Assembly: GCA_965204375.1 (NCBI GenBank)
Contig: OZ241986.1
Span: 4,610,898-4,674,897, forward strand
Direction of reading: 5' to 3'
DNA length: 64,000 bases
Origin: Candidatus Latescibacterota bacterium
GTDB lineage: Bacteria; Latescibacterota; UBA2968
Below the pieces are notes generated by a model that was given only the letters and a program-made list of their open reading frames with translations, ran no database searches and had not been told where the DNA came from. Shown in pieces: positions 1 to 41,625 of this stretch (positions within the stretch are counted from its first letter, which is position 1; the number at the start of each line of letters is the position of its first letter). The position numbers and the translations under genes are program-made.

Positions 1-1439
1 CTCGTCGTCTGCTCCAAGCCCTCGGCGATGGTTTGCTCCAGACTCTTGTGGAGAATTTTGCACTCAATCACAATCTTGTGCGTGATCTCTCCCTGCGGCC
101 AGACAATCAGCAGGTCCGTGCGCCCACGGCCAAGACCATACTCCCGCTCAATGCGTCCGCCGCTGTTCACGATGCGCTGGAGAAATGCCTGCAACAGCAA
201 CTGCGGACCGGCCTCCTGATACTGAAACCTCGTCACCCAATGCTCTGAATGCTCGCGGAAGAAGGTCTGAAACGCGGTCATCAGCTTGACCACATTCAGG
301 CTGCCATCGGCATTGACGTACCAGGCGGTGTCTTGCTCAAATTCCCCTTGTACCACCCACGTCAGTTCACGCGGCACAACTTCGGCGTAGATGGGATTGG
401 CAATGCGGTACGGCAGATCCTGAGCCACTAAGCCGAGATCCCGCACATACTCGAGGTCGCGGTTGATGAAGCGGCGTTCCTCAGCCCCACTCAAGAGCGG
501 TTCAATCACGCGCTGCACGCGCTTCTCCTGCAACTTGTCGGCCAACTGATCCAGATGTGTTTCTCGGCGCAGGATGAGTTGCTCTTGCGCCTCGCGGATG
601 GCGTCGGCAGTGATCGAGATACCCCGGTCCTCTGCGGCATCGCCATAGAAGCAGGTTTCTTCCGCCAGTGCGTTGACCAGCCACGGCTGTCCCTGAGTCT
701 GTGTCCAGATCAGTTCTATTGCGTCGGGTGTGAACACCTGTCCTGTCTCATCCGTATGCTGGTTGAGCAGGGCGAGCACCTCGTCTCGCGAGAAATCGCC
801 CAGGCGCAGGGATCGCGCTTTGATATTAAACGCACTGCCACCGGCGATGATGGCATTGGCTGAACTGGAATGGATGCGGTAATCGCGCACATCGCGCACG
901 CCGCACAACACCACACTTTGCGGAAAACCCTTTGGGCGCAGATCGTAGCCCGCTCGCAATTGACGCAGCACGGACAGGAGCGCGTCGCCAATCAGAGAAT
1001 CAATCTCGTCAATGAGCAACACCAGAGGCTTGGGATCCGCCTCTGCCCAGCGGGTCAATGCCTCCTGTAGAGCAACACCCGGCCCAACCTCGGCGAGAAG
1101 ATCAGGCCACATCTTGCCCAAAAATTCGTCGCCGAGCGTCAAGCGTGCCCGAGACGCCAATCCGGCCAGAATAGTACGCGTCACCTGTTCCAAATCTTCG
1201 CGCAGAGCCTGTCCACCTTCGACGTTGACATACACACAGCGATAGTCGCTTTCGGCATTGAGCAAGTCGCGCAGAGCCAAAAGGGCAGAGGTCTTGCCTG
1301 TCTGCCGGGGCGCGTGCAGGACAAAATAGCGTTTGTCGCGGATGAACCTGCGAACTTCGTTGAGGTCGAGCCGCTGTAGGGGCGGGATGCAATAGTGGTC
1401 CGCAGCGACTACTGGCCCGGTCGTGTTGAAAAAACGCAT
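1..1439 (-). CDS. AAA-ATPase-like / PD-(D/E)XK nuclease family protein; the 3' end runs off the left edge of the window and it is absent from the supplied ORF track
   Basis: My own minus-strand translation from ATG (1439-1437) gives MRFFNTTGPVVAADHYCIPPLQRLDLNEVRRFIRDKRYFVLHAPRQTGKTSALL... and stays open to position 1 (479 codons). It has a Walker A-like HAPRQTGKTS, a Walker B-like LVLLIDEID and a C-terminal GRTDLLIVWP...IVIECK block resembling a D..ExK nuclease motif. The short overlapping track ORFs in 28-1392 look like shadows of this gene. Confidence 0.75.
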   Translation of the reverse strand, partial: MRFFNTTGPVVAADHYCIPPLQRLDLNEVRRFIRDKRYFVLHAPRQTGKTSALLALRDLLNAESDYRCVYVNVEGGQALREDLEQVTRTILAGLASRARLTLGDEFLGKMWPDLLAEVGPGVALQEALTRWAEADPKPLVLLIDEIDSLIGDALLSVLRQLRAGYDLRPKGFPQSVVLCGVRDVRDYRIHSSSANAIIAGGSAFNIKARSLRLGDFSRDEVLALLNQHTDETGQVFTPDAIELIWTQTQGQPWLVNALAEETCFYGDAAEDRGISITADAIREAQEQLILRRETHLDQLADKLQEKRVQRVIEPLLSGAEERRFINRDLEYVRDLGLVAQDLPYRIANPIYAEVVPRELTWVVQGEFEQDTAWYVNADGSLNVVKLMTAFQTFFREHSEHWVTRFQYQEAGPQLLLQAFLQRIVNSGGRIEREYGLGRGRTDLLIVWPQGEITHKIVIECKILHKSLEQTIAEGLEQTT

Positions 1440-1554
1440 CGCTGTGTCTCCCTGTCTAATGCATTAGTTATCCTGAATATATACAACATTGCGACAGAAA
1501 AACAAAAAAATCTAAAAAAGTAAACGACCAACCGCTCTGCGCGTGGCGGCACAC

Positions 1555-1596
1555 CCTTCACCCTTCTTACTTCACACTTCTCACTTCATTCTTGAC
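1555..1596 (-). repeat. Heptanucleotide tandem repeat, about 6 degenerate units of NCTTCNN on the plus strand (GAAGTGW-type on the minus strand)
   Basis: Read directly in period 7: ccttcac ccttctt acttcac acttctc acttcat tcttgac. It belongs to the same family as the arrays at 11882-11950 and 13201-13235. Confidence 0.8.
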
Positions 1597-1620
1597 AGTC
1601 TCAATCCACCGCCATATATA
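1592..1620 (+). promoter_or_regulatory. Sigma70-like promoter candidate: TTGACA, 17-nt spacer, TATATA
   Basis: TTGACA lies at 1592-1597, followed by a 17-nt spacer and TATATA at 1615-1620. The ATG of the downstream gene starts at 1627, 7 nt after the -10 element, with no Shine-Dalgarno in between. Confidence 0.4.
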
Positions 1621-1626
1621 GGTGTC

Positions 1627-3573
1627 ATGGCTGAAGTCGCTCGAGAACACGAACAAAAAGACGCCATCGCGCGCGCATTGACCTATAAGTCAATCATACT
1701 GGGGCTAATCCTCGTACTCGTAGCCGCGCTCGGTGGATTTTACGCACGGCACATCTTGCACACAACGCGGCTGGCGCAAAATCACTTGTCCCTCGCCGTG
1801 GTATTTCCCTTTGCAATAACAGTCGTCTTCTTGCGGCATTATCTCAAACTCAACCGGGGCGAACTGCTCGTCATCTTTTCAATGGGCCTGATCGCCTCAA
1901 CCCTGCCAACGTATTTCTTGAGCCGATTAATCGCCAGCTTTTGCGTACCGTATTACCTCGCCGACCCCACAAATCGATGGGGTGAATTTACACACGATTA
2001 CCTGCCATCCTGGGCCGTAATTGAACCCGGTCCGGCACTGACGTGGTTCTTCGAGGGCTTGCCGCGCGGCGCGCCTGTTCCATGGGAAGTGTGGATCGGA
2101 CCTCTGTTCTGGTGGTTGAGCCTGCTCGCGGCACTCTGCGCGGTCTTGTTGTGTACAGCGGTAATCTTGCGCAAGCAATGGATCGAATACGAGCGACTCG
2201 ACTACGCCCTCATGGAATTGCCCCTCGCAATGGTCGAAGAAGGCGATACCCCGTCCCGCCTGCCGCCATTTATGCGCTCGCCGCTCTTCTGGATGGGCTT
2301 TTCCTTTTCGATCTTCGGCATACTATGGAACATCGTATCCTATTTTAACCCCACATTCCCCGTATTTCCATGGCGGTTTGAAGCCATATCATTTGGACGA
2401 GATTTTCAGTCCATTCGCATGAACCTCTACTGGCCCATTGTGGGATTTGCCTACTTTATCAATTTAGACATCTCGTTTAGCATCTGCTTTTTCTACCTCC
2501 TCGCGGTCATAGAAGAGGGATTATTCAACCGATTTGGCGTCATAATTTCAGAAGCAAATTTTGCTGGCACCTCCTTTGTGCCTGTGGGCTGGCAAATGAT
2601 CGGCGTGTGGTTTACCGTAGTCGGCTGGGGGCTTTGGATTGCGCGATCGCACCTCCGCGATGTCTTTCGCAAAGCATTCAAAGGCGATGCAAAAGTCAAT
2701 GACTCAGACGAATTGCTCTCTTATCGGGGCGCTGTCTTCGGCCTATTGGCCGGGCTACTTTACATGGCCTGCTGGTTTTACGCCTCGGGCATGGGCCTGT
2801 GGGTAATCGCGGTATTTCTCGTCGTCATGATGGTCGTCTATATCGGAATCTCGCGCATCATCGCCGAAACCGGCGTCATCACCATCCGCGCAGTTATGGT
2901 ACCGCAAACATTTATCATGTTCACATTTGGCACCACGCGACTATCTGCACAAACCATGGTCGCACTCGGCATGTCTTATGGCTGGTGCGGCGACATGAAA
3001 ACAACACTCATGCCCGCCTTAACCCACTCTGTCCGCTTATTTGACACCATACAGCACCACAAGCGGCAACTCGTCTGGGCTATGTGCCTCGCAATGGGCG
3101 TGGGCATCGTCGCATCCTGTTTGTATATCATATCCATGGGATACGAAGGCGGCGCGGGCAATTACGGATCGCAAATCTCCGGAGGCTTAGCGCGCGGCCC
3201 CTGGGACTTTGTGGTTAAATACGCAAGAGATCCCGTCAATCCCGACTGGCGCAAAATGGCCTTCTTCACCAGCGGCATCGCCTTCGCTGCCCTCCTGTAC
3301 TTCTTGCGCTACCGCTACACCTGGTGGCCTCTGCACCCACTGGGACTGGCAACCGGACCTGCGTATCCCGTAACCCATGTAATCTTCCCAATATTTCTCG
3401 GCTGGTTGAGCAAACTCGCGATCTTGCGTTTTGGCGGCAGCAGAACCTATCGCAGTGCCCGCCCCTTCTTCCTGGGATTGATCATGGGATACTACGTGGG
3501 TGCAGGCATCTCGTTCTTTGTCGATATGATCTGGTTTTACGGGCAAGGTCACGGCGTCCCGTTTTCCGATTGA
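1627..3573 (+). CDS. Large polytopic membrane protein of unknown function (paralog A)
   Basis: Track ORF 1543..3573. I moved the start to ATG 1627 because from there the N-terminus (MAEVAREHEQKDAIARALTYKSIILG) has the same length as that of paralog 6237..8189 (MAIRETQTQTAPLQRAVTVRSIVIG). There are many hydrophobic segments. Shared blocks include WFFEGLP, ILRKQW.E.ERL, FRKA, WWPLHP.G and PFFLGL..GY. I recognise no characterised family. Confidence 0.8.
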   Translation: MAEVAREHEQKDAIARALTYKSIILGLILVLVAALGGFYARHILHTTRLAQNHLSLAVVFPFAITVVFLRHYLKLNRGELLVIFSMGLIASTLPTYFLSRLIASFCVPYYLADPTNRWGEFTHDYLPSWAVIEPGPALTWFFEGLPRGAPVPWEVWIGPLFWWLSLLAALCAVLLCTAVILRKQWIEYERLDYALMELPLAMVEEGDTPSRLPPFMRSPLFWMGFSFSIFGILWNIVSYFNPTFPVFPWRFEAISFGRDFQSIRMNLYWPIVGFAYFINLDISFSICFFYLLAVIEEGLFNRFGVIISEANFAGTSFVPVGWQMIGVWFTVVGWGLWIARSHLRDVFRKAFKGDAKVNDSDELLSYRGAVFGLLAGLLYMACWFYASGMGLWVIAVFLVVMMVVYIGISRIIAETGVITIRAVMVPQTFIMFTFGTTRLSAQTMVALGMSYGWCGDMKTTLMPALTHSVRLFDTIQHHKRQLVWAMCLAMGVGIVASCLYIISMGYEGGAGNYGSQISGGLARGPWDFVVKYARDPVNPDWRKMAFFTSGIAFAALLYFLRYRYTWWPLHPLGLATGPAYPVTHVIFPIFLGWLSKLAILRFGGSRTYRSARPFFLGLIMGYYVGAGISFFVDMIWFYGQGHGVPFSD

Positions 3574-3635
3574 GCAATCAGCGGTCAGCAAAACTCTTTG
3601 CAGCGCAGAACAATGCTCACCGGATACGTCGTGAG

Positions 3636-3905
3636 CTATGCACTCAGCGTTAGCTCCTGAAGATATAAATTCCGCGCACTATCAGTGAGTGACACAGCAT
3701 TGAGACCGCCGAAACGGATAACATATTTTGCCCTTTCGTCGCTCGCTAAAATAAAAAATTCAGGATGGCTTTTGACGATTTGGATGACCGTTTCAGGAGA
3801 TATTTTGAGATCTCTTGCAATGCCCCCTGGCGTACGCCAATCACCTCTGGAGTGATAGATCACTTTGACAATATCCTTTATCATTCCTTGTTCATTTTGA
3901 TCCAT
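3636..3905 (-). CDS. Small hypothetical protein (89 aa), possibly winged-helix-like
   Basis: Track ORF 3636..4049. I moved the start to ATG 3905 (MDQNEQGMIKDIV...), which is preceded by AAGGAG 7 nt upstream. The longer N-terminal extension has no ribosome-binding site and low-complexity hydrophobic content. Confidence 0.5.
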   Translation of the reverse strand: MDQNEQGMIKDIVKVIYHSRGDWRTPGGIARDLKISPETVIQIVKSHPEFFILASDERAKYVIRFGGLNAVSLTDSARNLYLQELTLSA

Positions 3906-4206
3906 TTTCTTTCTCCTTTGATTGTGGCCCTGGGACAATATCCGATACGATGTCGATAACAGCGTCTTTGAACATATCACTAAAAAGGCTCGAAAAAAGA
4001 TCAGGCACCTCATTATGCTTTCAATATGCAGTATCGCGCTGTTGTTCACAACTTGAATTTGTGGATCGTCTGTTGAAGAGGAGAGGGAGCAGAACAGGCG
4101 TTAGTGTATATTTTGAGCGATGAATCAGTGGTATGGTGAAAGATATGTTCTTTTTATTATGCCGCGATGACAACCCAAACCTCCTGGATTAAGTCAAAAA
4201 CAAACA

Positions 4207-4248
4207 AAAGCCCGTCAATCACCATAGATTGACGGGCTTTCTTATTTT
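4207..4248. terminator. Strong bidirectional intrinsic-terminator-like hairpin not attached to any annotated gene end
   Basis: A perfect 14-bp stem pairs aaagcccgtcaatc (4207-4220) with gattgacgggcttt (4227-4240), with loop accata. A T-rich tract (cttatttt) lies downstream and an A-rich tract upstream. Confidence 0.55.
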
Positions 4249-4300
4249 CCTCTCCTAATTTGGGTTGCATTCTGGTATCGCGGATTAGATATTACAAAAC

Positions 4301-6133
4301 ATGACATCAAAAGCAAACAACGCGACGGATCGAATCTCGCACTATTTTCCCTATATTGTGGGCGGAACTGCGATAGTGATCCGTTTTTTTTATCTCTGGT
4401 CATTCTGGGCCAATCATCCGTTCTCGCAGAAACTCATCTCCGATGCGCGGATATTCGACGACTGGGCACTGCGCATCGCCTCGGGGGACTGGCTGGGTAC
4501 CTCTGAAGTCTTCATTCTACCCCCTCTGTATCCATATCTCATAGGAATCGTCTATGCGGTCTTTGGACATGCGCCCAAACTGATAATAGGCTTACAGGCC
4601 ATCGCCGGATGTGCCAGTGCGATACTGGTCTATCGATTGGGCGCACGGCATTTTGGCGCTTATGCGGGATTATTTGCAGGATTGCTATTCGCGATCTACG
4701 GACCGCAACTATTTTACGAAGGCATGCTACTGGGCACATCGGGTGCCGTATTCCTCAGCCTGATAGGATTGACGCTAATCTCAGGTAATAATAAAACCCA
4801 CTGGCACCTGGGGCTGGCCGGATTGGTCTTTGGACTGGCAACACTCCTGCGCCCCAACATCTTATCCGCAATCCCCTTCTTACTCTTCGGCGCGTGGTGG
4901 GCCTACCACAAAGCAACACCGACAAAACGTTCAATACGACTGGCGAGTTACTTTTTAGGAGGCCTGATACTCCCACTCTTCCTGTGCGGACTGCGAAATG
5001 GCCTGATCGCAGACGACTGGGTACTGATGACCGCGCACGGCGGCATCAACTTTTACATGGGCAACCACCCGGATGCGCCAGGCTGGTTCTCCGCGCCTCC
5101 TAATGTGGATGCACAGATCACCCCAGATGGGGCACAGGGTAATTTGGAAGAACCGCGTCGCGTGGCCGAAAATGCTCTGGGACGGTCCTTGAAAGCATCT
5201 GAAGTCTCTTCCTTCTGGTTTAATAAGGGCCTCGCATTCTGGATAGATGATCCCGTAGGCGCGATAGCCATAACCTTGCGAAAAGTGCGCCTATTTGCAT
5301 CGGGATACGAAGTCCCGCTCAATTACAATTTTTATTACCAGAGAAAATTCTCCGCCCTCCTGCGCTTTCCAATCACAGAACTGTGGATACTACTTCCCCT
5401 ATCCATCGTGGGACTCATCGTCGCAGCCCGGCAATTTGATCGCCATGCCATCCTGTATCTGTGGCTCATAGGATACGCGGCAGGCGTATTGGCATTTCAC
5501 GTATCATCGCGCTATCGCATGCCCGCAATCCCCATCCTCATGATATTTGCAGGGTTGGGAATATGGACATTGATATCCTGTGTACAATCACAAAAATGGA
5601 AAAACCTGTGCATCGGTGTAGCTGCACTGATCATCCTGTGGACCGGCTACCGCATTGAACTAAACGCACAACTCGCCCAAAACAACTGGGCCATGGACCC
5701 CTTCAATCTGGGCACGGCTTATTTGTGGGCAAACGAAAATGAACGGGCGCGATTATATCTCGAAGAAGCAGAAAAATACGGCCAGGGCGGTGCCGTCTTG
5801 TATTACAATTTGGGATTGGCTTATGCACGCACCGAACAAACAGAAGCCGCCAAAAACGCGTACCTTCAGGCACTATCTCAGGATCCCAACCTGGTGCGCG
5901 CCTATGTCAACCTCGGCAACATCTTATTTCACGAAGGAAAATTTCACGAAGCCATAAATAACTATCGGGAAGCACTGAAACGCGCCCCCAATACCCACAA
6001 TGCGCGTGCGAACATGGGCTGGGCATATTGGTCTCTGGGAAGAATAGACGAAGCGCGCAGTGCCTGGCAGCAAGTCTTGCAAAGAGCACCCGATCACCCC
6101 TCGGCAAAAGCTGGGATAGCGCGCACGCGTTAA
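4301..6133 (+). CDS. GT-C fold ArnT/PMT-like (family 39-type) glycosyltransferase with C-terminal TPR repeats
   Basis: 610 aa. The N-terminal two thirds hold many TM segments in the pattern typical of dolichyl/undecaprenyl-phosphate-sugar dependent transferases (FYLWSFW, LPPLYPYLIG). The C-terminal region has clear TPR units (YYNLGLAYARTEQTEAAKNAYLQALSQDPNLVRAYVNLGNILFHEGKFHEAINNYREALKRAP). Confidence 0.8.
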   Translation: MTSKANNATDRISHYFPYIVGGTAIVIRFFYLWSFWANHPFSQKLISDARIFDDWALRIASGDWLGTSEVFILPPLYPYLIGIVYAVFGHAPKLIIGLQAIAGCASAILVYRLGARHFGAYAGLFAGLLFAIYGPQLFYEGMLLGTSGAVFLSLIGLTLISGNNKTHWHLGLAGLVFGLATLLRPNILSAIPFLLFGAWWAYHKATPTKRSIRLASYFLGGLILPLFLCGLRNGLIADDWVLMTAHGGINFYMGNHPDAPGWFSAPPNVDAQITPDGAQGNLEEPRRVAENALGRSLKASEVSSFWFNKGLAFWIDDPVGAIAITLRKVRLFASGYEVPLNYNFYYQRKFSALLRFPITELWILLPLSIVGLIVAARQFDRHAILYLWLIGYAAGVLAFHVSSRYRMPAIPILMIFAGLGIWTLISCVQSQKWKNLCIGVAALIILWTGYRIELNAQLAQNNWAMDPFNLGTAYLWANENERARLYLEEAEKYGQGGAVLYYNLGLAYARTEQTEAAKNAYLQALSQDPNLVRAYVNLGNILFHEGKFHEAINNYREALKRAPNTHNARANMGWAYWSLGRIDEARSAWQQVLQRAPDHPSAKAGIARTR

Positions 6134-6177
6134 ATTAAATAGACACCTGATATTGCCATACGTATATTGGCTCGATT

Positions 6178-6225
6178 CATCATCCGCGCTATCCGCGTAA
6201 TCCCCGTAATCCGCGATCCGATTCG
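6178..6225 (+). repeat. Short tandem repeat, about 4-5 units of a 9-mer (T)AATCCGCG
   Basis: Read directly: catccgcg ctatccgcg taatccccg taatccgcg atccgattcgg. It lies immediately upstream of the GGAG/ATG of paralog B. Confidence 0.7.
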
Positions 6226-6236
6226 GAGTATCATGA

Positions 6237-8189
6237 ATGGCCATTCGCGAAACACAAACACAGACAGCACCTCTCCAACGCGCCGTAACCGTGCGGTCAA
6301 TCGTGATAGGTGCCCTGTGCGCAGGCTTCCTCGGATGGGGTGGACATTTTACGCGCCACATTGCACACACCACAAAAATGGCGCAGGACCATTTGCCGTG
6401 GGGCGCAGTCGTACCGTTTTTGTTAATAGCGGTCGTATTGAATAAAGTACTGGAAAAAGTGCGCCCACAATGGGTCTTGCGCCCTTCGGAATTGCTGGTC
6501 ATCTTCAGCATGGGCCTGGTCGCATCGGCATTGCCCAGCTATTTCATGGGACACTTAATCGCCAACGTATCCGCGCCATTTTACTTTGCCAACACAGAGA
6601 ACCGATGGGCAGACGACATACATCCGTACTTAGCTGAATGGGCGGTCGTAACCGACGCAACAGCTGCGCGGTGGTTTTTTGAAGGACTGCCAGCCGGCGC
6701 AACCATCCCCTGGGAAATCTGGATAACGCCGATGATCTGGCGCCTGAGCCTCGTATTTATGATCGGCGTATTTGGATTCTGTGCGGTTTCAATCCTGCGC
6801 AAGCAATGGGTAGAACACGAGCGCCTCACCTTTCCATTGATGACATTGCCACTGGAACTCGTCAACAGAGAACCGCGAGGATTCTGGCCCGTGGGCATCA
6901 TGAATCGCCCCGTATTCTGGTGGGGATTCGCGCTCGCTTCATTTCCCATTTACTGGAACATGGTTGGATATTTCCAACCGCTTTTTCCGACCATTCCCCG
7001 AGACCTGGGATTGATGGAATTCGGTCAGTACTTCCCGCCGATTCACACGCGGTTTTATCCAGTAATCATTGGCGTATCGTATTTTATGGACCTGGATGTA
7101 TTGCTTAGCATCATCGTCTTTCACCTGTTATTGACCCTTGAAATGGGACTGTTCAACCGCCTGGGAATCGAAATAGGCCCAACCCATGTGTGGCCGGCAT
7201 CGCAATTTGAAAACTGGCAGGGATTTGGTGCCCTGTGCGTGCTGGTGCCGTGGAGCTTGTGGATGGCGCGAGAACATCTGAGAAATGTATTTCGCAAAGC
7301 CGTGCTCAATGCGCGGGAGGTTGAAGACTCCGGCGAATTATTGTCCTACCGCGCAGCACTCGGCGGATTTCTGGCGAGCGGGCTATTTATTTTGAGCTGG
7401 TGTGTGGCATCCGGCATGTCGATCTTTGTCGCCCTGACCTTTTTGAGCCTTGTCGGCATTATCTGGCTGGGAATCACGCGCGTCTGCGTGGAGGGCGGCA
7501 TGATCAGCAGCCGCATGATACAGGGACAATTTGTCGCCTATCACCTGCTCGGTCCCGTAAATATTTCCCCATCGGGAATGGCGGCATTTGCCCTCACCGA
7601 GACATGGCACCACGATATAAAAACCATATTGATGGCCAACCTGGCCAATGCCACGCGGCTTTACGACAGCATCCGACACGAAAGAATGCGCCTGGTCATC
7701 GCCCTGGGATTGGCCATGCTGGTGGTGATAACCACAAGTGCGTATTATCAAATATCATCGAGCTATGTGACCGGCGCATTTAATTACGGCGGCATTTACG
7801 GTCCCTATGTACAGAACACTTTTGATACCATAGCCGGTCATATTCGGGACCCCTTTGCTCTGAAACGCGAGCGCATGCTCATCGCGCTCATTGGAATGGC
7901 AACCACGGCATTGATGCTATCCTTGCGCTATATATGGCCCTGGTGGCCCTTGCATCCGATCGGGTTTGCCGCCGTAACAGCGTATCCCGTCAACCGCATT
8001 GTATTCTCGATCTTCTTTGCATGGTTTTCTAAATTTATCATATTGCGGGCGGGCGGCATTGATCTATACCGCAAAGCATCGCCGTTTTTCCTGGGACTTA
8101 TGGTGGGGTATTTCACGGGCGTATTTGTGTCGTTTCTGGTAGATTGTATCTGGTTCCCAGAGCAGGGACATTCGCTGGCACTGTATTAA
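6237..8189 (+). CDS. Large polytopic membrane protein of unknown function (paralog B)
   Basis: 650 aa, collinear with 1627..3573 over its full length (see shared blocks there). GGAG at 6225-6228 lies 8 nt before the ATG. Confidence 0.85.
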   Translation: MAIRETQTQTAPLQRAVTVRSIVIGALCAGFLGWGGHFTRHIAHTTKMAQDHLPWGAVVPFLLIAVVLNKVLEKVRPQWVLRPSELLVIFSMGLVASALPSYFMGHLIANVSAPFYFANTENRWADDIHPYLAEWAVVTDATAARWFFEGLPAGATIPWEIWITPMIWRLSLVFMIGVFGFCAVSILRKQWVEHERLTFPLMTLPLELVNREPRGFWPVGIMNRPVFWWGFALASFPIYWNMVGYFQPLFPTIPRDLGLMEFGQYFPPIHTRFYPVIIGVSYFMDLDVLLSIIVFHLLLTLEMGLFNRLGIEIGPTHVWPASQFENWQGFGALCVLVPWSLWMAREHLRNVFRKAVLNAREVEDSGELLSYRAALGGFLASGLFILSWCVASGMSIFVALTFLSLVGIIWLGITRVCVEGGMISSRMIQGQFVAYHLLGPVNISPSGMAAFALTETWHHDIKTILMANLANATRLYDSIRHERMRLVIALGLAMLVVITTSAYYQISSSYVTGAFNYGGIYGPYVQNTFDTIAGHIRDPFALKRERMLIALIGMATTALMLSLRYIWPWWPLHPIGFAAVTAYPVNRIVFSIFFAWFSKFIILRAGGIDLYRKASPFFLGLMVGYFTGVFVSFLVDCIWFPEQGHSLALY

Positions 8190-8205
8190 AAGAACGGAAA
8201 TCAAC

Positions 8206-17480: not shown

Positions 17481-17567
17481 GGCACGCTCGTCCTCGACGC
17501 GAAACTATTTTGTGGCGTGCGGCACTACGTGCCATTCTTTAGTACTAATACCATTGGAAACCCTGCT

Positions 17568-18494
17568 ATGAATAACGTGTGGGAAGTACCCGAGCCTCTT
17601 TCGACCTGCGAAGTCCAGCTCGACGACAATACCGTCACCACTCTGCGGCGGCATGGAAATCCCGAAGGCCCCCGACTCGTTCTGAGCCACGGCAATGGCC
17701 TCGCAATAGACCTCTATTACCCTTTCTGGTCACGGCTCGCCGATGATTTCGACCTCATCATCTTCGACCTCAGGAACCACGGCTGGAATACCGTTGGTTC
17801 ACGCGAAAAACACAATATCCCGACGCTGGTCCGCGACCAACTCTGTATTTTTGAATCCATTGACCGTCACTATGGGAATAAACCAAAAACCGGTATATTT
17901 CACTCTGCTTCCGCACTGATAACCCTCCTATCATTAACGGCTATGGCAGACCTGTGGTCGTCCGCCCAAAGCAGCCATTTATCGGCGATGATTTTATTTG
18001 ATCCCCCTTTGTGCAAGCCCGGCAATAGCCAGATAGAATTCGATAAGGCCATCGAACACGCAGCCGCAACTACCCGCCGCCGCGGGTATTTGTTCCAAAC
18101 AGAAGAGGATTTTGCAGAACTCCTCAGCTATCTGCCCGGCTTCTCACGCGTCGTTCCCGGGGTTCGGGAACTCATGGCGCGAACAACACTTCGAAAGTCT
18201 GCTTATGAACAGGGTTACGAGCTTCGGTGTCCTCGCGACTACGAGGCGCAGATCACTGATTATTTCAGGAGTTTTTCTGCATTGACGGATTTTGAAACAC
18301 TGTCTTGTCCCACAAAGGTCATCGGAGCCGACCCCACCTTGCCCTATGCATTTCTGCCGACCATTGACCTTGGTGACATTCTAACTGTAGATTACGATTT
18401 CGTACCAGAAGCAACACATTTTCTTCAATTGGAAAAACCAGCGAAATGCGTTGATATGGTCCGGGAATTTCTCGAGATTAATCGCCTGTTGTAA
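17568..18494 (+). CDS. Alpha/beta-fold hydrolase (possible thioesterase/acyl hydrolase partner of the PKS)
   Basis: Track ORF 17517..18494. The start is probably ATG 17568 (MNNVWEVPEPL). It has the oxyanion-type motif LVLSHGNG and a nucleophile-elbow-like FHSASA instead of a canonical GxSxG. It ends 26 nt before the PKS start. Confidence 0.65.
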   Translation: MNNVWEVPEPLSTCEVQLDDNTVTTLRRHGNPEGPRLVLSHGNGLAIDLYYPFWSRLADDFDLIIFDLRNHGWNTVGSREKHNIPTLVRDQLCIFESIDRHYGNKPKTGIFHSASALITLLSLTAMADLWSSAQSSHLSAMILFDPPLCKPGNSQIEFDKAIEHAAATTRRRGYLFQTEEDFAELLSYLPGFSRVVPGVRELMARTTLRKSAYEQGYELRCPRDYEAQITDYFRSFSALTDFETLSCPTKVIGADPTLPYAFLPTIDLGDILTVDYDFVPEATHFLQLEKPAKCVDMVREFLEINRLL

Positions 18495-18520
18495 AACCCG
18501 TGCGAACATGGAGGTGTCAC

Positions 18521-21500
18521 ATGAAGCCGGATAAATCAGACCAACCAATAGCGATCGTAGGTATGGCGTGTCGATTTCCCAACGCACCGAATATCTCTGC
18601 CTTCTGGCGTCTGCTCGAAGCCGGTCAGAACGCCGTGACGGAAGGTTCTCCAGGCTCTGGCGTCGGCCGCGTGGGTACGCTCTTCCCAGACGCTGAGGTG
18701 CAGAACGACGCCTGCCGTTTCGGTGCCTTCGTCGATGACATCGACCTGTTCGACGCCACCTTCTTCCGCATTTCGCCAGTCGAAGCGCAACTGCTGGATC
18801 CCCAGCAGCGGATGATGCTGGAGACGAGCTGGCAGGCGCTCGAGGACGCGGGGATAGATCCGGATCGGCTAAAGGGTAGCCGCACCGGTGTGTACGCGGG
18901 AATCAGCAACAACGATTATCGGGGCGTAATCTTGGGATCCAGCAGAACTGCCGAGCCTTCCGCCAGCCTCTTCTCTGTCGCGGGCACCTCTCTGAACACA
19001 GCCATAGGTCGAGTAGCCTTCGCACTGGGTCTTGGAGGACCGGCAATGGCGGTAGATACCGCCTGTTCGTCGTCGCTGGTTGCGACGAACCAGGCGGTTG
19101 CTGAATTGCAGCAGGGCAAAGCGGATCTGGCACTGGCGGGCGGGGTGCAGGCGATCCTTTCCGGGCGGCTAACCGAACTGCGGGGAAATGCCGGGATGTT
19201 GTCGCCAGACGGGCAATGCAAGGCGTTTGATGCGTCTGCGAATGGCTTCGTGCGAGGTGAAGGCTGCGGAATTGTGGTCCTCAAACGGCTGAGCGAAGCA
19301 GAGGCCGATGGCGATCACATCTGGGGCGTCATCCGAAGCACCGCGGTAAACCAAGATGGCGCGAGTACAGGCCTGACGGTACCAAACGGTCCGGCACAGG
19401 AGCGCGTGATCGAAGAGGCACTATCGCGGGCGGGAATTCTGCCATCGGAAGTCGATTATGTGGAGGCACACGGAACGGGCACAGAGGTGGGCGACCCCAT
19501 TGAGATAAACGCGACAGCAGCGGTGTACGGCAGGGGACGCGACGCGGACAACCCGATACTCGTCGGCTCGGTAAAAACAAATATCGGTCATCTGGAGCCA
19601 ACCGCGGGGGTTGCGGGCCTGATCAAGACCGTACTCTCGATGAAGCAGGGCGTGATCCCAAAGCATCTGCACTTCGAGAATCCCAATCCGAACATGGACT
19701 GGGATCGACTACCTCTGCGAGTGACTTCCGAGGCAATGGACTGGCCGCTCAACGCCGAACGACCACCGATTGCGGGAGTGAATTCGTTCGGATGGTCGGG
19801 CACAAACGCGCATGTCATAGTGGAGGGGTACGGAACACCAAAAAGCAGTGATGAAGAGTATTTACCCGTGGGATCCGCACGGCCTGTTGCCATTTCTCTA
19901 CCGAAGTCAGTGCTGCCGCCGGAGGAAGAAATCGGCGCGCGCAGGACGCGATTGCTGCCGCTATCGGGAAAATCCGATGAAGCGCTTCGAGACCTGGCGG
20001 GGCAGTATCTGAAACGCGGTTTTGCTTCCGAAGATGAAGCCAGGCTTGCCGACATGGCGTGGACAGCCGGCGTGGGACGAAGCCATTTCCCTCACCGCGC
20101 GGGCATCGTATTCAGCGATGGCGCATCGCTGCGCGAGAGCCTGAGTGCACTCGCAGAGATCAGCACGAGACCTGCACCGCAAACGCCCTCCAAAATCGCA
20201 TTTGTATATACCGGACAGGGTAGCCAGTGGATCGGCATGGGCGAAAACCTGTACCACACCGAACCAGTGGTGCGCGCAGTGCTGGACCAATGCGACGCCG
20301 TACTGCGGGAAGCGCGAGGCACCTCATTGCTCGATGTGATGTTCGGACGCGCAGGTGATTTATCCGACCAAGCGTGGACACAACCAGCTATTTTTGCCAT
20401 AGAATGCACGCTGACGGCGCTCTGGAAAAGTGTGGGTATTACACCCAGTGTGGTGCTCGGACACAGTCTTGGAGAACTGGCAGCGGCACAAGCCGCGGGT
20501 GTATTTAGCATAGAAGAAGGTGTGCGATTTGCCGCGGCGAGAGGTGAACTGACAGCGACACTGCCCGGTGGTGGGGCCATGGCGGCCATTTTTGCGGATG
20601 TGTCACAGGTAGAATCAGCCCTCAACGAACTCAACGCAGCTTCCACAGGCGTGGGACTGAGCATGGCGGCATACAACGGCGCGCATCAGGTGGTGAGCGG
20701 TCCCGAAGAAAAAGTCGAGGCGATCTCCGAGCACTTCCTCGCGCAGGACATTCGGGTCAGCCGCTTGCGCACCACGCACGCATTCCACAGTGCATTGGTA
20801 GAACCGATGCTGGACAAACTGGATGCCATAGTCTCAGAGATCGCGGTCGCATCCCCATCGCTCACCCTGGTGAGCAATGTGACGGGTCAGGTGCTGGAAA
20901 CGGGAAAACGTCAGGATAGTGCGTATTGGCGTCAGCACACGCGAAAGCCAGTGGCATTCGCGCCAAGCATCGAGACATTGGCTGGGCTGGGCGTCGATCT
21001 CGTCATTGAAGTCGGTCCGCACGCCGTGCTGAGTACAATGACGACCCTGTCGTGGCCAGACACGGCAGAGGGTCCTCCTGTTGCGCTACCGAGCTTATTG
21101 CGCCCCTCGTCCAAAGTGTCGCAAGCAGAAGCCGACCGCGCATTTACAGCGGCGGTTGCAAAAGCTTATGAAGCGGGTCTTTCCGTGTCCTTTGCCGGAC
21201 TGTTCGCAGGTGAAACCCGGCGCCGCATTTCGCTGCCGAGCTATCCTTTCCAGCGCGAACGCTACTGGGTCGAAGCGCCGAAACGACGGCGGCAGATCGC
21301 CGGCCATCCCCTCCTGGGCGAGAGGCATGAATCCGCCAGCGGCGAGATCGCGTTCGAGACCGAAGTACTCCCCTCGGATCCGACTTGGCTGAACGATCAC
21401 CGGGTATTCGGCCGTGTCATAGCCCCGGGCGCGCTCTATGGGGCGATGGCGATATCGGCATCCATGGCTGAGGAAAGCGGATCGATGGTCATCGAGGAAA

Positions 21501-24500
21501 TGCAACTGCACAACGCGCTGATCTTCCCGGAGGAGAGTGCGGATAACGATGAAGGCGGGGGCCGAGAAATGCAGGTTCTGCTCGAGGCTCCGGGGGAGGA
21601 GCCTTCGCGCCTCGTTCGAATATTCAGCAAAGGAGAGGCCGAGGAGGATTGGACGCTGCACGCGGAGTGTCGCGCGCCATCGGATACCAACGCGCAGCAA
21701 GCCTCTGAGCAGGTGAATCTGGAAAGCCTGAAGGCCGGTCTGTCGCCCGAGGACGTGCCGGCGTTTTACCGCGCCAAGGCGGGCGTCGGGATCGATCTCG
21801 GCCCATCGTTCCGCACGCTGAGGATGGTCTGGTCCCGGGCGGGCGAGGCGTTGGGAGAAGTGTGTTTCCCCGAGGCTCTCGGCGGGAACGATCTCGACGT
21901 ACACCCGCTCCTGCTCGACGGTTGCTTTCAGGTGATGGGAGCCGCGCGCAATCCGGGTGGAGCCGAAGACGGAATCACCTATCTGCCGTTCGGCTGGGAG
22001 CGGCTGTGGCTGCCGGATCGGCTACCGGATCGGTTTCTCTGCCACATGCGCATGCGGGAGGCTTCGAAGAATCGGGAACCGGATGCCGAAACCGGTGGGT
22101 CGCCGGAGGTCTTTGTAGGGGATTTCCTTCTCTACGACCAGAGTGGGGTCCTGATCGGCGAATTGAGCGGATTCATGGTGAAGCGTGCGACGCGGGCGGC
22201 GCTGCTCTCGGCAGTGGAAGGGGTTCAGGAACTGCTCTACGAGGTCATGTGGCGCGAAAGCACCCTTGCGCCGGGACTGCTGCCAGCGGATTTCCTCCCG
22301 AGTCCGGGAGAGGTTGCGGACCGGTGGGAGCTGTTCTCCGACTACCTGGCGGCGGAAGGAGTCGATGCCGGATTGAGGCCCGCCTGGTTGGCGGACCTCT
22401 CGTGCATGGCGCGGCATTTTGCGCTCTCTGCCCTGGAGAAACTCGGATGGGAGAGAAAGGCGGGCACCGCCGTGGACTCCGAAGATTTGCGGCAGCGCCT
22501 GGGGGTCCTGGATGAACACAGCCGTCTGTTCCGCCGGATGCTCGAGATATTGGCTCGCGCAGGCGTTCTGGAGGCGGCGGGCGAAGGTTTTGTCGTTGCC
22601 GTAGGGGCCGGAGAGCCGCTGCCAGAAGGAATTCCGGGCAATCCCGAGCAGTTCGCGGCACAAGTGAACGAGCGTTACTCGTATGCTTCAAGCGAGATCG
22701 GGATTTTTCGCAGAAGCGCGGGTGCCCTGGCGGAAGTGCTTCGCGGCGAAGAGGATCCGCTGTCGCTTCTCTTCGGCAGCGGAGAACCCAGCGCCGCGGA
22801 TCTCTATTTCAAGGCACCGATATATCGAGCGTCGAACCGGATGTTGGGAGACGCGGTGCGCACACTTGTAGCCGGGTTGCCCGAAGGACGGCGCTTGAGG
22901 GTGATTGAGGTCGGGGCGGGTACCGGATCGGCGACCGAATCCGTCCTGCCGGAGCTTCCCGAAGGGCGGTACGACTACATGTACACGGATATCTCGGCGG
23001 GTTTCTTCGCGCAGGCAGAGGGGTTGTTCGGCGATGAGTGTATCGAGTACCGGGTGCTGGACATCGAAAAAGACCCCGTAGAGCAGGGATTCGACCCCCA
23101 CGGTTATGACTTGTTGATTGCGTCCAATGTGCTGCACGCCACGCGGTACCTGGAGGAGACGCTAACGCACTGCCGGAGCCTTCTCGCGCCGTCGGGACAT
23201 CTCGTGGCACTCGAGAACCTTTGCGGCCAGGATTGGCTGGATATGACTTTCGGACAATTGGACGGCTGGTGGCGGTTCTCCGACGACTGCCGCCCCACCT
23301 ACGCCCTGGCGGGGCCAGACGTATGGCGACAGTCCCTCGGCAGCGTGGGTTTCGAAGGCGTGGAGATTCTGGGACTGGGCGGACCCGACGCCGCCGAGAT
23401 GCCGGATAGGGGCGTGATTCTGGCGCAGCTGCCCGAAGAGGTCGCCGAGCAGCGCGGAGTATGGGTTCTGGCGGCGGACCGCGGCGGCGCGGCGGCGGAG
23501 CTGGCCCTGGAGTTGGCGGCGCGCAACCAGACGGTTGTGCTGGCGAGCGATGCAGGTTCGACGGGAGAGGGTCCGGCGGATGAAAAAACTGCTGTCATCC
23601 ATACGTCCCTGGAGATGGAGCACCGAGAATCGTGGCAGTCGCTGCTCGAAGACCTGCCCGGGCATGCGGCACTCAGCGGTGTCGTGCATTTCGCGGCGCT
23701 CGACGGCCACGGCCCCGATACGACGACTGCTGAAATGGCGGAGAACGTGAAACGAGTGGGAGCAAGCGCATTGGCGCTGGCGCAGGGTCTGGCCGACGCC
23801 GATGTGACGCCCGAGAAGGGCTTGTGGTTTCTCACGCGGGGCGCGCAGGTGCTGGAGCGCGAACGCGCCGGAGAGCTTGTCGGCGCGACGCTATGGGGTT
23901 TCGGAAAGGTACTGGCCCGGGAAGCATCCCACATGCAGCCGAAGATGATCGATCTGGATCCCGAGCCTACGGCACCGCCGGTAGATCTCGCCAATGAACT
24001 GCTCTATCCCGATACGGAAGACCAAATCGTACACCGCGGCAGCCGACGCCGCGTAGCCCGCCTTGTCCGGACCGGCGAGGGGACGGATAGGATAAACTTG
24101 CCCGAAGAGCCGGGCTGGATGCTGGGGGTCGGCGAGGACGGCGCGATCGCTGACCTGCAGGTGGCGCCGACGCCGCTGGAGTCGAAAGAAGTTCGCGTGG
24201 CTGTCGAGGCCGCCGGATTGAACTTCTGGGATGTGTTCGCGGCACTCGGTTTGATTGACGAGAAATTCCTGGGCACGGAGTTTTGCGGCCATATCATCGA
24301 GGTCGGCTCCGAGGTGGCGAGCGTTGCGGTGGACGATCGCGTCGTGGGATTGGCATTCGGCACCTTCGGGCCGGAGGTGGTGACCCGGGCGGAACTCTTG
24401 GCACCCGCGCCACCGGATTTGTCCGCTACGGCGCTCGCCTCAATGCCGACGGTGTTCGTGTCAGTCGCGCTGTCTTACGAACTCGCGGGGCTGAAAGCCG

Positions 24501-27500
24501 GTGACCGCGTGCTGATTCACGCAGGCGCGGGCGGCGTGGGGCTTGCGGCCATCCAGTGGGCGCAGGCGGCGGGAGCGGAAGTGTTCGCGACGGCGAGCGC
24601 GCCGAAACAGGCGTATCTCCGCTCGCTCGGCGTAAAGCATGTGTTCGACAGCCGTCAGACGAAATTCGGGGAGGAAATCCTCAAGGCCACGGGGGGTGCA
24701 GGGGTCGATGTGGTATTGAACAGCCTGACGGCGGAAGGTTTCATCGACGCGAGTCTGGCGTGTCTGGCGCATGGTGGCCGGTTCGTGGAACTGGCGGCGC
24801 GGGACATTCTGAGCGAGGAAGAGATGGCGGCCGTACGGCCGGACGTGGCCTATTACATCGTGAATCTTCATGCCATGAAGGGGGATGACCCGGCGCGACC
24901 CGGCGCTTTGCTGAGAGATGTCATGAAACGGCTGGCAGCGGGAGAACTAACGCCGCTCATCCACACCAGATGGCCGCTTGCCGAAGCGAGACGGGCCATT
25001 GAGTTCATGCGCGACGGTAGGCACATCGGAAAAATCGCCTTTGCGAATTCGCCGCTCACCAGTGGGCGGTTGCGAGAGGATCGAACCTATCTGGTAACAG
25101 GTGGTCTGGGTGGGATCGGGTGCGTAATGGCCGACTATTTGGCGGATCGCGGCGCGGGTGCAATCGCGCTAAACGGGCGCCGGGCACCGAACCCTGAAGC
25201 CGAAGAGACGATCCGCAGGCTGCGGGAACGAGGCGTGACAGTGCAGGTAGAGATTGCAGATGTGACGGACGCCGATGCAATAGATGAGATGCTGGCGCGG
25301 ATGGATGAGACGCTACCGCCGCTGGGCGGCGTAATCCACAGCGTGGGGGTGTTGTCGGACGGTGCGCTCGGGAACCAGAGTTGGGAAAGATTCGAGCAGG
25401 TGCTGTGGCCGAAGGTGCTGGGCGCGTGGCATCTGCATCGCGCGACTGAGGACCGCGATCTGGATATGTTTGTCCTCTTCTCCAGCGTGGCCGGTGTGCT
25501 GGGCAATCCGGGCCAGTCGAACCACGCGGCGGCCAATGCGTTTCTGGATCAACTCGCCGCGCATCGCCGCGCACTCGGACTTCCGGGACAGACCATCGCC
25601 TGGGGCGCGTGGTCGGAACTCGGCGAAGCGGAAGAACAACGGGAACGGATTGCCGAACGGCTGGAAGCGCGAGGAACGGATTGGATAACTCCGCAGCAAG
25701 GTCTCAGGGCATTCGACCAACTGGTGCGCGAGGACGCCGCGACATCCGTCGTGCTGGCAGCCGATTGGTCGTCTTACGAGGAGGGCCTGGAATACCGGAT
25801 GCCCCTGCTGGAGGATCTGCTCTCCACCATTTCAGAAGACGAGGCCGACTCGCCTGCTCTGGCGGACGACCTGATGTCCCATCTGGCGGAAACGCCCGCG
25901 GCGGAGCGTGAGGCCCTGTTGGTATCGTTCCTGCAGCAGGAATTACAGGCGGTGCTGAGGTTGCCGACAGCACCCGAGCCCACGGTGGGATTTTTCGATC
26001 TGGGGATGGACTCGCTAATGGCCGTAGAATTGCGAAATCGGCTGAACCGCGCGTTTGCCGATGAGTACGTGGTCCCCAACACTGTGGTATTTGACTACCC
26101 GGACATCGCCCGTCTCGCCAACCATCTAATTGAGGAACTCGGCGAAGTCAGCACTGTGCCCGCCCCTCCACCCCAGGTGCAACCCGAGCCAGAGCCACAG
26201 ACGGAAGTACAGCGCGAGGACAACGGTATTGCGATTGTGGGCATGGCCTGCCGCTTCCCCGGCGCCCCGGATCTTTCCACCTTCTGGCAGCAGCTTGAAG
26301 CAGGTGCGGACGCCGTGACAGATGGACGCCGGGATTCCGGTTCATGGAACGCTCTTGCCAAAGACCTTCCTCCCGAATACGCCGCCTATCGCCGGGGCGG
26401 ATTTGTGGAGGAAATTGATCGATTTGACGCGAGATTCTTTCGGATTTCGCCGATTGAAGCGCGCATGATGGATCCGCGGCAGCGCATGATGCTGGAGACG
26501 ACCTGGCAAGCGCTCGAGGATGCGGGAATTGATCCAGACAAATTGAGGGGCAGCCGCACCGGGCTATACGCTGGCATCGCCACCAGCGAATACCGGGACC
26601 TGATGACAGCCAGCGACTACGGCATCAGTTATCTGAGCACTGCCGCGAGCATGACGGTCGGGCGAATTGCTTTCCTTCTTGGTCTGGAGGGACCGACGAT
26701 ACCGGTGGAACTCAACTGCGCGTCGTCACTGGTCGCAGTGCATCAGGCAGTGATGGGTTTGCGGGAGGGCGAAGTAGATATGGCCCTGGTTGGAGGGACA
26801 CACGCAGTTCTGTCACCTGAATTAACCAAAGAGATGGCGGAGTTGGGGATATTGTCGCGGGAAGGACAGTGCAAAACCTTCGATGCCTCTGCGGATGGCT
26901 TTGTGCGGGGCGAGGGCTGCGGGATGGTCGTCCTCAAGCGGCTGAACGAGGCAGAAGCAGATGGCGACCGCATCTGGGGCGTGATCCGCGGGTCTGCGGT
27001 CAACCAGAACGGGGCGAGCGCAGGACCCACCGTGCCAAACGGACCGGCGCAGGAGCGGGTAATTGAAGAGGCACTGTCGCGGGCGGGCGTTGCCCCATCA
27101 GAAGTAGATTATCTGGAAGCCCACGGGGGTGCGTCGGAGTTGGGCGACCCGATCGAAGTTCAGGCAGCGGCGGCTGTTTACGGCAAGAACCGCGAAGCAG
27201 ACCGCCCGCTTTTGATCGGCTCCGTGAAGACCAACATCGGTCACCTGGAGCCGGCTGCCGGGGTTGCGGCTCTGATCAAGGCAGTACTGGCGATGAAGCG
27301 AGGGGTGATTCCCAAAAACCTGAACTTCAAGAATCCGAGTCCGCATATAGACTGGGACCGGTTGCCGGTGCAGGTAGTATCAGCCCCGACGGACTGGCCG
27401 CGTCATCCCGATCGTCCGCCGCGGGCAGGGGTAAGCGCCTTCGGGATATCGGGCACGAATGCCCATGCTGTCGTAGAAGGGTATGACAGCCCGGATGCAA

Positions 27501-28953: not shown

Positions 28954-28985
28954 AACAGGCCCCGGATGGAAATTCGGGGCCTGTT
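28954..28985 (+). terminator. Terminator-like hairpin after the ACP gene
   Basis: A perfect 11-bp stem pairs aacaggccccg (28954-28964) with cggggcctgtt (28975-28985), with a 10-nt loop. Only a weak T tract follows (ggtttat). Confidence 0.5.
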
Positions 28986-29023
28986 GGTTTATGGGAATTC
29001 GATGAAGGTTCCGCTTATTCAAC

Positions 29024-29063
29024 CCTTCACACTTCACAGTACGGGCGAAAGATTTTCGCCCCT
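29024..29063. repeat. Composite intergenic element: two CTTCAC heptads plus a GGGCGAAA/TTTCGCCC hairpin
   Basis: Read directly: ccttcac acttcac agt ac GGGCGAAA gat TTTCGCCC ct. It is near-identical to 35747-35779. Confidence 0.85.
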
Positions 29064-29073
29064 TCTCTTCACA

Positions 29074-35739: not shown

Positions 35740-35746
35740 AGAATCT

Positions 35747-35847
35747 CCCTTCACAACGGGCGAAAGGTTTTTCGCCCCTACCATTTATCTGTGTGTATCT
35801 GCGTAAAACGCTCAAATTACTCGCGTTTTTTCTGCGGATCACACTTC
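35747..35847 (-). repeat. Composite intergenic element: CTTCACA unit, GGGCGAAA/TTTCGCCC hairpin, 10-mer pair TATCTGYGTR and the 17-mer TCTGCGGATCACACTTC
   Basis: The hairpin pairs 35758-35765 with 35770-77. tatctgtgtg tatctgcgta follows. The 17-mer at 35831-35847 is identical to 10867-10883 and contains the TGA stop (35841-35839) of 35839..36615. Confidence 0.85.
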
Positions 35848-36615: not shown

Positions 36616-36629
36616 TTCGCCCTCCTCTT

Positions 36630-37775: not shown

Positions 37776-37777
37776 AT

Positions 37778-38650: not shown

Positions 38651-38770
38651 TGTATTAACCTTTCCCGAAGAGTAAAAAAAGCATTGTGAACCATTTTATC
38701 GCCTTATATTAAAGGCAACGAACCAATTTAAAAGCATTTATACACATCGGCAACCGTTAAAGGAGGGGTT

Positions 38771-40003: not shown

Positions 40004-40134
40004 AAAAACGCTGTTGGTTGACTTTTATGGTTGGGTATAGTAACTTCGAACATAACCGGCAGTTCCGACGAAGCGACGACTTAGAAACTGATGGTCGTCC
40101 AAGGGGCGATCATAGAGAGGGTAATAGGTAAAAA

Positions 40135-41583: not shown

Positions 41584-41595
41584 AAATTGGTAAAA

Positions 41596-41625
41596 GGCGG
41601 GACACCGAAGTGTTCCGCCCTTTTT
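41596..41625 (+). terminator. Intrinsic terminator after 40135..41583
   Basis: A 9-bp stem pairs ggcgggaca with tgttccgcc (one G-T pair), with loop ccgaag, followed by cttttt. Confidence 0.65.

Follow-up and report, generated by a model that had tools for sequence, protein, structure and literature searches.

We analyzed a gene cassette at positions 1627-10782 of a 64,000-nucleotide stretch of DNA (the whole of which is called here the window) from a Candidatus Latescibacterota bacterium. The window sits in a 6.34-Mb single-contig metagenome-assembled genome (MAG), and the related loci described below also carry Candidatus Latescibacterota names, with a few labelled Gemmatimonadetes. An initial annotation of this DNA had interpreted the cassette as a glycoconjugate or protein-glycosylation system, in which two paralogous polytopic membrane proteins (A and B) bracket a GT-C glycosyltransferase and are followed by an exported protein with TPR and GWxTD domains. 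The open reading frames (ORFs) of all five genes of that annotation were recovered at the same positions by ORF listing and translation. The features of the locus, given with window positions and strand, are as follows:

1627-3573, + strand: paralog A, a polytopic membrane protein with DUF6785 and DUF6784, predicted OPT/YSL-fold secondary transporter, 648 aa from ATG 1627
3574-4300, no strand: insertion of 727 nt between A and the GT-C gene, containing dispersed genome repeats
3636-4049, - strand: small accessory ORF within the insertion, 137 aa from GTG or 89 aa from ATG 3905
4301-6133, + strand: GT-C glycosyltransferase (PMT_2, ArnT/PMT-like) with C-terminal TPR, 610 aa, assigned by Pfam
6237-8189, + strand: paralog B, a polytopic membrane protein with DUF6785 and DUF6784, predicted OPT/YSL-fold secondary transporter, 650 aa
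8206-10782, + strand: secreted TPR and GWxTD protein, 858 aa, assigned by TIGR04514 and TPR families

The ORF of paralog A is open from GTG 1543 (1543-3573), and its alignment to paralog B begins at ATG 1627. The GWxTD gene starts 16 nt downstream of B.

Paralogs A and B align along their entire length with 43% identity (E 4e-175). The initial annotation could place them in no nameable family; however, both match Pfam DUF6785 (PF20581, cut-off 25 bits) and DUF6784 (PF20580, cut-off 26.4 bits) well above the cut-offs, A with 373.5 bits (E 1.9e-111) and 83.2 bits (E 1.6e-23), and B with 351.6 bits (E 8e-105) and 81.1 bits (E 7.5e-23), respectively. At E <= 0.1 the only further Pfam match was one of 13.7 bits to PrgI, which is noise, and the flippase and polymerase families (Wzx/MOP, Wzy/O-antigen ligase-like, GtrA) gave no Pfam match for either protein. 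The retrieved homologs of A and B all had the same two domains and were all annotated as hypothetical, and searches of the available literature library for DUF6785, DUF6784 and GWxTD yielded no paper. DUF6785/DUF6784 is a catalogued but unstudied family with no described function.

The structure of B was predicted with AlphaFold. The single-sequence prediction was unusable (pLDDT 41); the prediction made by AF2 with an alignment of 44 sequences had a pLDDT of 89.3 and a pTM of 0.89. The comparison of this model with the PDB by Foldseek returned 7wsr_A and 7wst_A, the structures of barley Yellow Stripe 1 (HvYS1; PMC9691689), at E 1.3e-7 and 2e-7 with a probability of 1.00. The model and HvYS1 aligned over about 670 columns with TMq 0.64 and TMt 0.68. 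HvYS1 was the sole real PDB match of B, since the next one had a TM of 0.13 and no other exceeded 0.15; neither a flippase nor a polymerase was present among the 50 best Foldseek matches. Searches of the PDB by sequence and by profile, with B and with the DUF6785 alignment, gave no match. Judging from the predicted model of B, both paralogs are secondary transporters of the OPT/YSL fold, and their family is a very distant branch of the OPT/YSL superfamily.

A whole-genome search with the DUF6785 hidden Markov model (HMM) found 47 copies, all above the cut-off and 46 of them without stop codons, and the phmmer count of copies was likewise 47. A and B are thus two members of a massive expansion. 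In this genome DUF6785 outnumbers each of the three other transporter families that we counted, namely MFS_1 (about 24 genes), SSF (6 genes) and ABC permeases (22 domains). Among 121 genomes sampled from the phylum, 107 contained the family. Within the class, first-look candidates numbered 15-68 per genome, and public data contained 4267 clusters at 50% identity (E <= 0.001).

To describe the genomic context of the expansion, neighbours within +-3 genes of all 47 copies were clustered, and representatives of the recurrent clusters were checked against Pfam. These clusters corresponded to sulfatases, Gfo/Idh/MocA oxidoreductases (GFO), PorV/FadL-like barrels of ~330 aa, surface proteins of ~770 aa with no Pfam family, TonB-receptor-like proteins of ~1000 aa that match CarboxypepD_reg and Plug only, FG-GAP/ASPIC proteins, enolase-superfamily enzymes and RGL11-like proteins. 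The C-terminal end of the surface protein resembles, by eye, a domain of the type IX secretion system (T9SS) type. With HMMs built from the clusters we found 18 trios genome-wide in the order receptor > surface protein > PorV-like barrel (> denotes gene order here and below); eight of the 18 had a DUF6785 gene downstream at a distance of 0-2 genes, and four had a GWxTD gene directly after them. The permutation test of the number of DUF6785 copies with a given neighbour family within +-3 genes gave the following results:

surface protein: 10 observed, 1.0 expected, p <= 0.001
PorV-like barrel: 10 observed, 1.25 expected, p <= 0.001
receptor: 7 observed, 1.6 expected, p <= 0.001
GWxTD: 8 observed, 1.7 expected, p <= 0.001
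ASPIC: 4 observed, 0.4 expected, p <= 0.001
GT-C: 3 observed, 0.3 expected, p 0.006
sulfatase: 12 observed, 8.0 expected, p 0.09
GFO: 7 observed, 4.9 expected, p 0.22
enolase: 4 observed, 2.4 expected, p 0.22

These results indicate that the statistically solid partners of DUF6785 are the genes of an outer-membrane uptake-type module together with those of GWxTD proteins. DUF6785 and GWxTD genes also abutted on the same strand five times, as compared to 0.6 expected, with gaps of 9-38 nt; the GWxTD protein is a regular partner of uptake loci in this genome. The Pfam tally of the 117 remaining neighbours contained eight PhyH dioxygenases and 3-4 TPR proteins, the rest being scattered, and no peptidase signal was seen in it. 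The closest paralogs of A and B adjoin sulfatase, enolase-superfamily, Gfo/Idh/MocA and other catabolic genes, and the sole transporter gene of a 22-kb sugar-acid catabolic cluster in a marine relative belongs to DUF6785. In another Latescibacteria MAG (L051:6386-13996), the gene of a small TPR protein comes after DUF6785, and next to it a 1532-aa protein with Peptidase_M28 and FtsX is encoded.

The GT-C protein matched PMT_2 at residues 74-219 (37.8-38.6 bits, cut-off 26.1) and contained TPR repeats at about residues 465-607, in agreement with its earlier description as an ArnT/PMT-like GT-C with TPR. PMT_2 was matched by all 11 aligned GT-C homologs, orthologs and paralogs together (best 2.1e-14), and three of the 11 also matched Glyco_transf_22, an Alg9-like GT-C family. 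In loop 1, D48 was invariant and D63 was conserved in at least 90% of homologs down to 29% identity; by analogy, such conservation is expected for an active GT-C, and either residue may be catalytic. The PDB profile search with the membrane domain found no similar solved GT-C, and the full-length query returned TPR matches only. The score against NCBIfam LA_3751/LA_3752 (35.9 bits) was far under the 200-bit cut-off. A crude hydropathy analysis did not place the TPR domain on either side of the membrane, and its location could, again by analogy, be periplasmic. GT-C enzymes depend on a lipid-linked sugar donor, which a GT2 enzyme makes and a GtrA-type protein flips (PMC11127046). Neither a GT2 polyprenyl-phosphate glycosyltransferase nor a GtrA-type flippase was found in window positions 1-17400, and the sole GtrA match above the cut-off was located at G000:C1:2576658, about 2 Mb from the cassette.

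The protein encoded downstream of B matched TIGR04514 at residues 351-436 (61.6 bits, cut-off 28) as well as TPR families, and its single hydrophobic segment is N-terminal and signal-peptide-like, which bears out the earlier label of a TPR/GWxTD-like exported protein. Its score against Pfam GWxTD_dom (17) was below the 26.9 cut-off, and the PDB search with the full-length query returned TPR matches only. The genome encodes about 32 such paralogs, this protein among them. The window itself encodes a second TPR and GWxTD-like protein of 1156 aa (30825-34295, + strand; phmmer E 6e-108 to the 8206-10782 gene), with an additional weak, below-threshold match to Y_Y_Y; its gene lies directly 3ʹ of a xanthine/uracil-permease-family gene (28966-30807).

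The order A > GT-C > B > GWxTD was retained in about 15 congeners, in which B was 91-98% identical. The A orthologs upstream of GT-C showed 87-98% identity in congeners and 67% in another genus, and in most relatives the gap between the A stop and the GT-C start was about 8-15 nt. In more distant congeners (B 89-90%; loci L020, L022 and L029) the GWxTD gene was found on the other side and on the other strand. Orthologs of the GT-C gene were present in genera g1, g3, g4 and g5 and in family f4 (44-93% identity), and around them the order GWxTD > GT-C > DUF6785 persisted down to 43-46% identity in other genera, in one other family and on metagenome contigs. Individual loci were arranged as follows:

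L084 (g3, GT-C 46%): GWxTD > GT-C > DUF6785 with overlapping stop and start (GWxTD end 8886, GT-C start 8883)
L025, the same as L088 (g5): A' (67%) > GWxTD' > GT-C (61%) > B (74%) > receptor > surface protein > PorV-like > GWxTD ortholog (60%)
L027, the same as L089 (f4, GT-C 54%): surface protein > PorV-like, then, further on, GWxTD > GT-C > B
L118 (metagenome): the trio, then, further on, GWxTD > GT-C > B
L114 (metagenome): GWxTD > GT-C > DUF6785 > receptor > surface protein > PorV-like
L087 (g4): receptor > surface protein > PorV-like > GT-C, without DUF6785
L024: B (79%) > receptor trio, without GT-C

The cassette and the receptor trio were contiguous in three loci, and the trio stood next to orthologous genes in L024, L025/L088, L027/L089/L118, L039 and L114. 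B orthologs retained the trio or the GWxTD gene even in loci without GT-C (L024, L028, L039), and in L075 the adjacency persisted with DUF6785 at 33% identity. In L085, L086 and L090 the GT-C orthologs were without cassette partners. The metagenome scan with the GT-C alignment yielded 11 orthologs of 43-69% identity; six of them had GWxTD upstream (L112, L114, L115, L116, L118, L120) and four had DUF6785 downstream (L113, L114, L118, L119). An adjacent DUF6785 was not found for any of the 69 metagenomic and 12 genomic GT-C paralogs at ~30% identity, two of the 12 having one 3-6 kb away. The cluster is conserved in related genomes and the membrane protein, GT-C and GWxTD genes co-occur, as had been anticipated in the initial annotation; the prediction holds for one clade and does not extend to the GT-C paralogs at ~30% identity. 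In L039 (positions 9977-11785; Latescibacteria bacterium UBA6620) the B ortholog, located between a sulfatase and the receptor trio, is split into three ORF pieces, as a result either of frameshifting in a pseudogene or of faulty assembly.

The small divergent ORF lies in an insertion that most relatives lack; thus it is accessory and outside the conserved cassette. It was present at this site in only three of about 20 related loci (L011, L017, L018), and one paralog with 84% DNA identity was found elsewhere in the genome. Its start is more likely at ATG 3905, which follows an AAAGGAG Shine-Dalgarno sequence and gives a product of 89 aa. No match was obtained for it in Pfam, NCBIfam or PHROG, and the winged helix-turn-helix label given earlier was not confirmed. 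Pieces of the insertion matched 23 other genome sites with 68-94% identity. These included a dispersed repeat of ~170 nt (window ~3981-4150; at least 15 other sites, 68-82% identity) and a ~50-nt hairpin element (4194-4248; 4-5 sites, 87-93% identity), and a strong bidirectional terminator-like hairpin was found at 4207-4240. The repeats could represent a MITE-like (miniature inverted-repeat transposable element) or small-RNA repeat family. The insertion probably uncouples A transcriptionally from the rest of the cassette.

On balance, we lean towards the view that the cassette is a lineage-specific, trimmed version of an uptake locus that spans the envelope in this Latescibacterota family, and that it comprises two OPT-fold importers and a dedicated GT-C. 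A and B would act as inner-membrane importers of small organic solutes. In the typical arrangement, DUF6785 comes after the receptor-like barrel, the ~770-aa surface protein and the PorV-like barrel, often with a GWxTD gene on one side of it. The A, GT-C, B and GWxTD orthologs of sister genera form one contiguous locus with the receptor trio; in the window's genus the trio is gone, and B now abuts the GWxTD gene. The simplest history of the window cassette is that of a reduced larger locus, in which the receptor trio once separated B from the GWxTD gene. The GT-C would take a polyprenyl-phosphate sugar produced elsewhere in the genome and may modify, on the periplasmic side, an exported locus component or the nearby envelope, with the GWxTD protein and the surface protein as candidate acceptors. 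The GT-C is thus seen as a conserved accessory of one orthologous locus and not as the centre of a glycan assembly line.

Several observations weigh against this reading. B is only 12% identical to HvYS1. The Pfam OPT model (PF03169) has its best match in the whole genome in B (20.3 bits, E 3.4e-4), which is below the 25.8-bit cut-off, and no canonical OPT gene exceeds the cut-off genome-wide. Although A and B most likely import small organic solutes, we infer both the direction and the substrate, and what OPT/YSL transporters are known to carry is oligopeptides and metal-chelator complexes, not sugars. In the window and in its genus no TonB-dependent-receptor gene stands beside the cassette. 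Several GT-C orthologs of 44-47% and 74% identity have no adjoining DUF6785 (L071/L090, L076-L078, which are the same as L085-L087, L117 and L122). The acceptor of the GT-C is a guess, and we know of no citable precedent for a GT-C with a role in an uptake locus. The neighbour statistics were based on 5107 genes called by a greedy longest-ORF filter, with no trained gene finder. Finally, enrichment of DUF6785 beside sulfatase, Gfo/Idh/MocA and enolase genes, which was considered as well, amounted to a weak, non-significant excess and was not taken as main evidence; significance was not reached because these families are so large here (178 sulfatase-like, 99 Gfo/Idh/MocA-like and 47 enolase-superfamily genes genome-wide).

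The main rival to the uptake-locus reading is the lack of any functional link, that is, a GT-C that is a passenger in an ancestral uptake locus and was inherited with it within one Latescibacterota family, the transporters, the GWxTD protein and the GT-C each serving a separate process. We consider this unlikely, but it competes more seriously than the models in which DUF6785 is a flippase or polymerase, or in which the locus serves export, both of which are less likely. The triad loci all belong to family f1 or to one neighbouring family, f4, or lie on metagenome contigs without an assignment, several GT-C orthologs are solitary (L085, L086, L090, L117, L122), and the cluster is easily rearranged, as seen in the flip of GWxTD in L020, L022 and L029, the insertion between A and GT-C in the window and the loss of the trio in g1. 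However, the adjacency persists at 43-46% identity of GT-C and at 33% identity of DUF6785 (L075), the intergenic gaps are very short or the genes overlap, and synteny of unrelated genes rarely outlasts such divergence amid local rearrangement.

Alternatively, GWxTD > GT-C(TPR) > DUF6785 may constitute the functional unit of an undescribed envelope machine, although we regard this as rather improbable. In such a machine the TonB-dependent barrel, the PorV-held surface protein bearing a C-terminal domain (CTD) and the GWxTD protein would capture the substrate, the OPT-fold protein would move the product across the inner membrane, and the dedicated GT-C would glycosylate an exported component or the substrate itself in the periplasm. 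If true, it would be the first case of a glycosyltransferase forming part of a nutrient-uptake locus, and it would give a first clue to the function of three unstudied families at the same time.

The glycosylation system of the initial annotation, with the GT-C as its core, DUF6785 as flippase, polymerase or acceptor scaffold, and the GWxTD protein as periplasmic partner or substrate, is in our opinion improbable. It could account for the conservation of GWxTD > GT-C > DUF6785 down to 43-46% GT-C identity, with overlapping codons in L084. About 80 GT-C paralogs at ~30% identity have no adjacent DUF6785, so the link to DUF6785 is specific to this GT-C ortholog group, which can also be counted in favour of the model. 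The same applies to a second, looser co-occurrence of the three families in the window's genome near 5.80 Mb (G000:C1:5799699-5807897), where a GWxTD gene (- strand), a 672-aa GT-C paralog (+ strand; phmmer E 2e-44 to the window GT-C), a 538-aa gene and DUF6785 (- strand) lie together. On the other hand, the predicted OPT/YSL fold, the 47 copies and the enrichment beside receptor operons (TonB-receptor, surface protein and PorV-like genes) do not support a flippase, polymerase or scaffold role of the paralogs and contradict the earlier proposal; at the level of fold, A and B map to a transporter family unrelated to glycosylation, and they match no flippase or polymerase family in Pfam. Moreover, 44 of the 47 DUF6785 copies have no GT-C within three genes, the significant partners of the family are outer-membrane uptake-type genes, the closest paralogs of A and B stand in catabolic contexts, the cassette contains neither GT2 nor GtrA (the latter being 2 Mb away), and B orthologs keep the trio or GWxTD in the absence of GT-C (L024, L028, L039).

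An export model, in which an Oar-type TonB-dependent barrel, CTD-bearing cargo and a PorV-like shuttle work with OPT-fold exporters while the GT-C decorates or anchors the cargo, would suit the CarboxypepD_reg and Plug composition of the receptor-like proteins and the T9SS-like CTD of the ~770-aa proteins (seen by inspection of the sequence) followed by PorV-like barrels, but it is very improbable, as all characterised OPT/YSL members are, to our knowledge, importers, the load of degradative enzymes (178 sulfatase-like, 99 GFO-like and 47 enolase-superfamily genes) fits uptake, and DUF6785 also occurs inside purely cytoplasmic catabolic clusters.

The remainder of the window contains genes of other types. 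Positions 11929-17394 (- strand) encode a BamB-like PQQ beta-propeller, a 413-aa protein that consists of ankyrin repeats over almost its whole length and is thus eukaryote-like, of a kind typical of symbionts, and a 959-aa protein in which a spermine/spermidine-synthase domain is present. A type I polyketide synthase of 3359 aa (KS-AT-DH-MT-ER-KR-ACP and a second KS-AT) is encoded at 18500-28579 (+ strand), with an alpha/beta hydrolase gene upstream of it (17517-18494). The stretch 34297-47667 is catabolic and contains genes for three sulfatases, a PhyH dioxygenase, an enolase-superfamily enzyme and an SGL gluconolactonase, and also for a CNT nucleoside transporter, a DegT aminotransferase and an S41 peptidase.

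The new elements in these results are the extent of the DUF6785 expansion, its significant coupling to the receptor, surface protein, PorV-like and GWxTD genes, and the conserved GT-C partner at one orthologous locus; the cassette itself does not amount to a new pathway of glycan assembly. The published analysis of Latescibacteria described conventional transporters only (PMC4454575). If DUF6785 proteins indeed make up the inner-membrane part of TonB-dependent uptake modules, the main import route of Latescibacterota is missing from metabolic reconstructions of the phylum, and the same may apply to other uncultured degraders. The conserved GT-C and GWxTD partners provide concrete, testable hypotheses for three families without a function.

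The loci studied here resemble in part several known systems. With the SusC/SusD polysaccharide utilization loci and the lipoprotein-assisted TonB loci of Bacteroidota they share a co-directional CarboxypepD_reg and Plug barrel, a surface protein, an inner-membrane transporter and sulfatases or oxidoreductases. They differ from them in that there is no SusD homolog, its place being taken by the ~770-aa protein without a Pfam family, the PorV-like barrel and the GWxTD protein; the inner-membrane transporter has a predicted OPT fold and is not of the MFS or SSS type, one orthologous locus adds a GT-C, and the window itself is without the receptor trio.

As for the glycosyltransferase, it shares with ArnT/PMT-type GT-C enzymes the PMT_2 domain and a conserved Asp in the first extracytoplasmic loop, and it carries a C-terminal TPR; it differs from them in being encoded in a transporter/GWxTD cluster. 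The TMTC O-mannosyltransferases of eukaryotes are a parallel case of GT-C enzymes bearing TPR. Similarly to the three-component periplasmic glycosylation systems (PMC11127046), the GT-C should need a lipid-linked donor on the periplasmic face, and the genome has a GtrA-family gene; unlike in those systems, neither GT2 nor GtrA stands beside the cassette, and the polytopic neighbours have a predicted OPT fold and are not GtrA- or SMR-like. With respect to Pfam, A and B match the DUF6785 and DUF6784 models end to end and are plain members of both, with no difference. In comparison to HvYS1 and the OPT/YSL transporters, the model of B has the same overall polytopic fold over nearly its whole length and the proteins are of similar size (about 650 aa), whereas the family of A and B is bacterial, has multiplied 47-fold and is encoded in TonB-receptor and catabolic loci.

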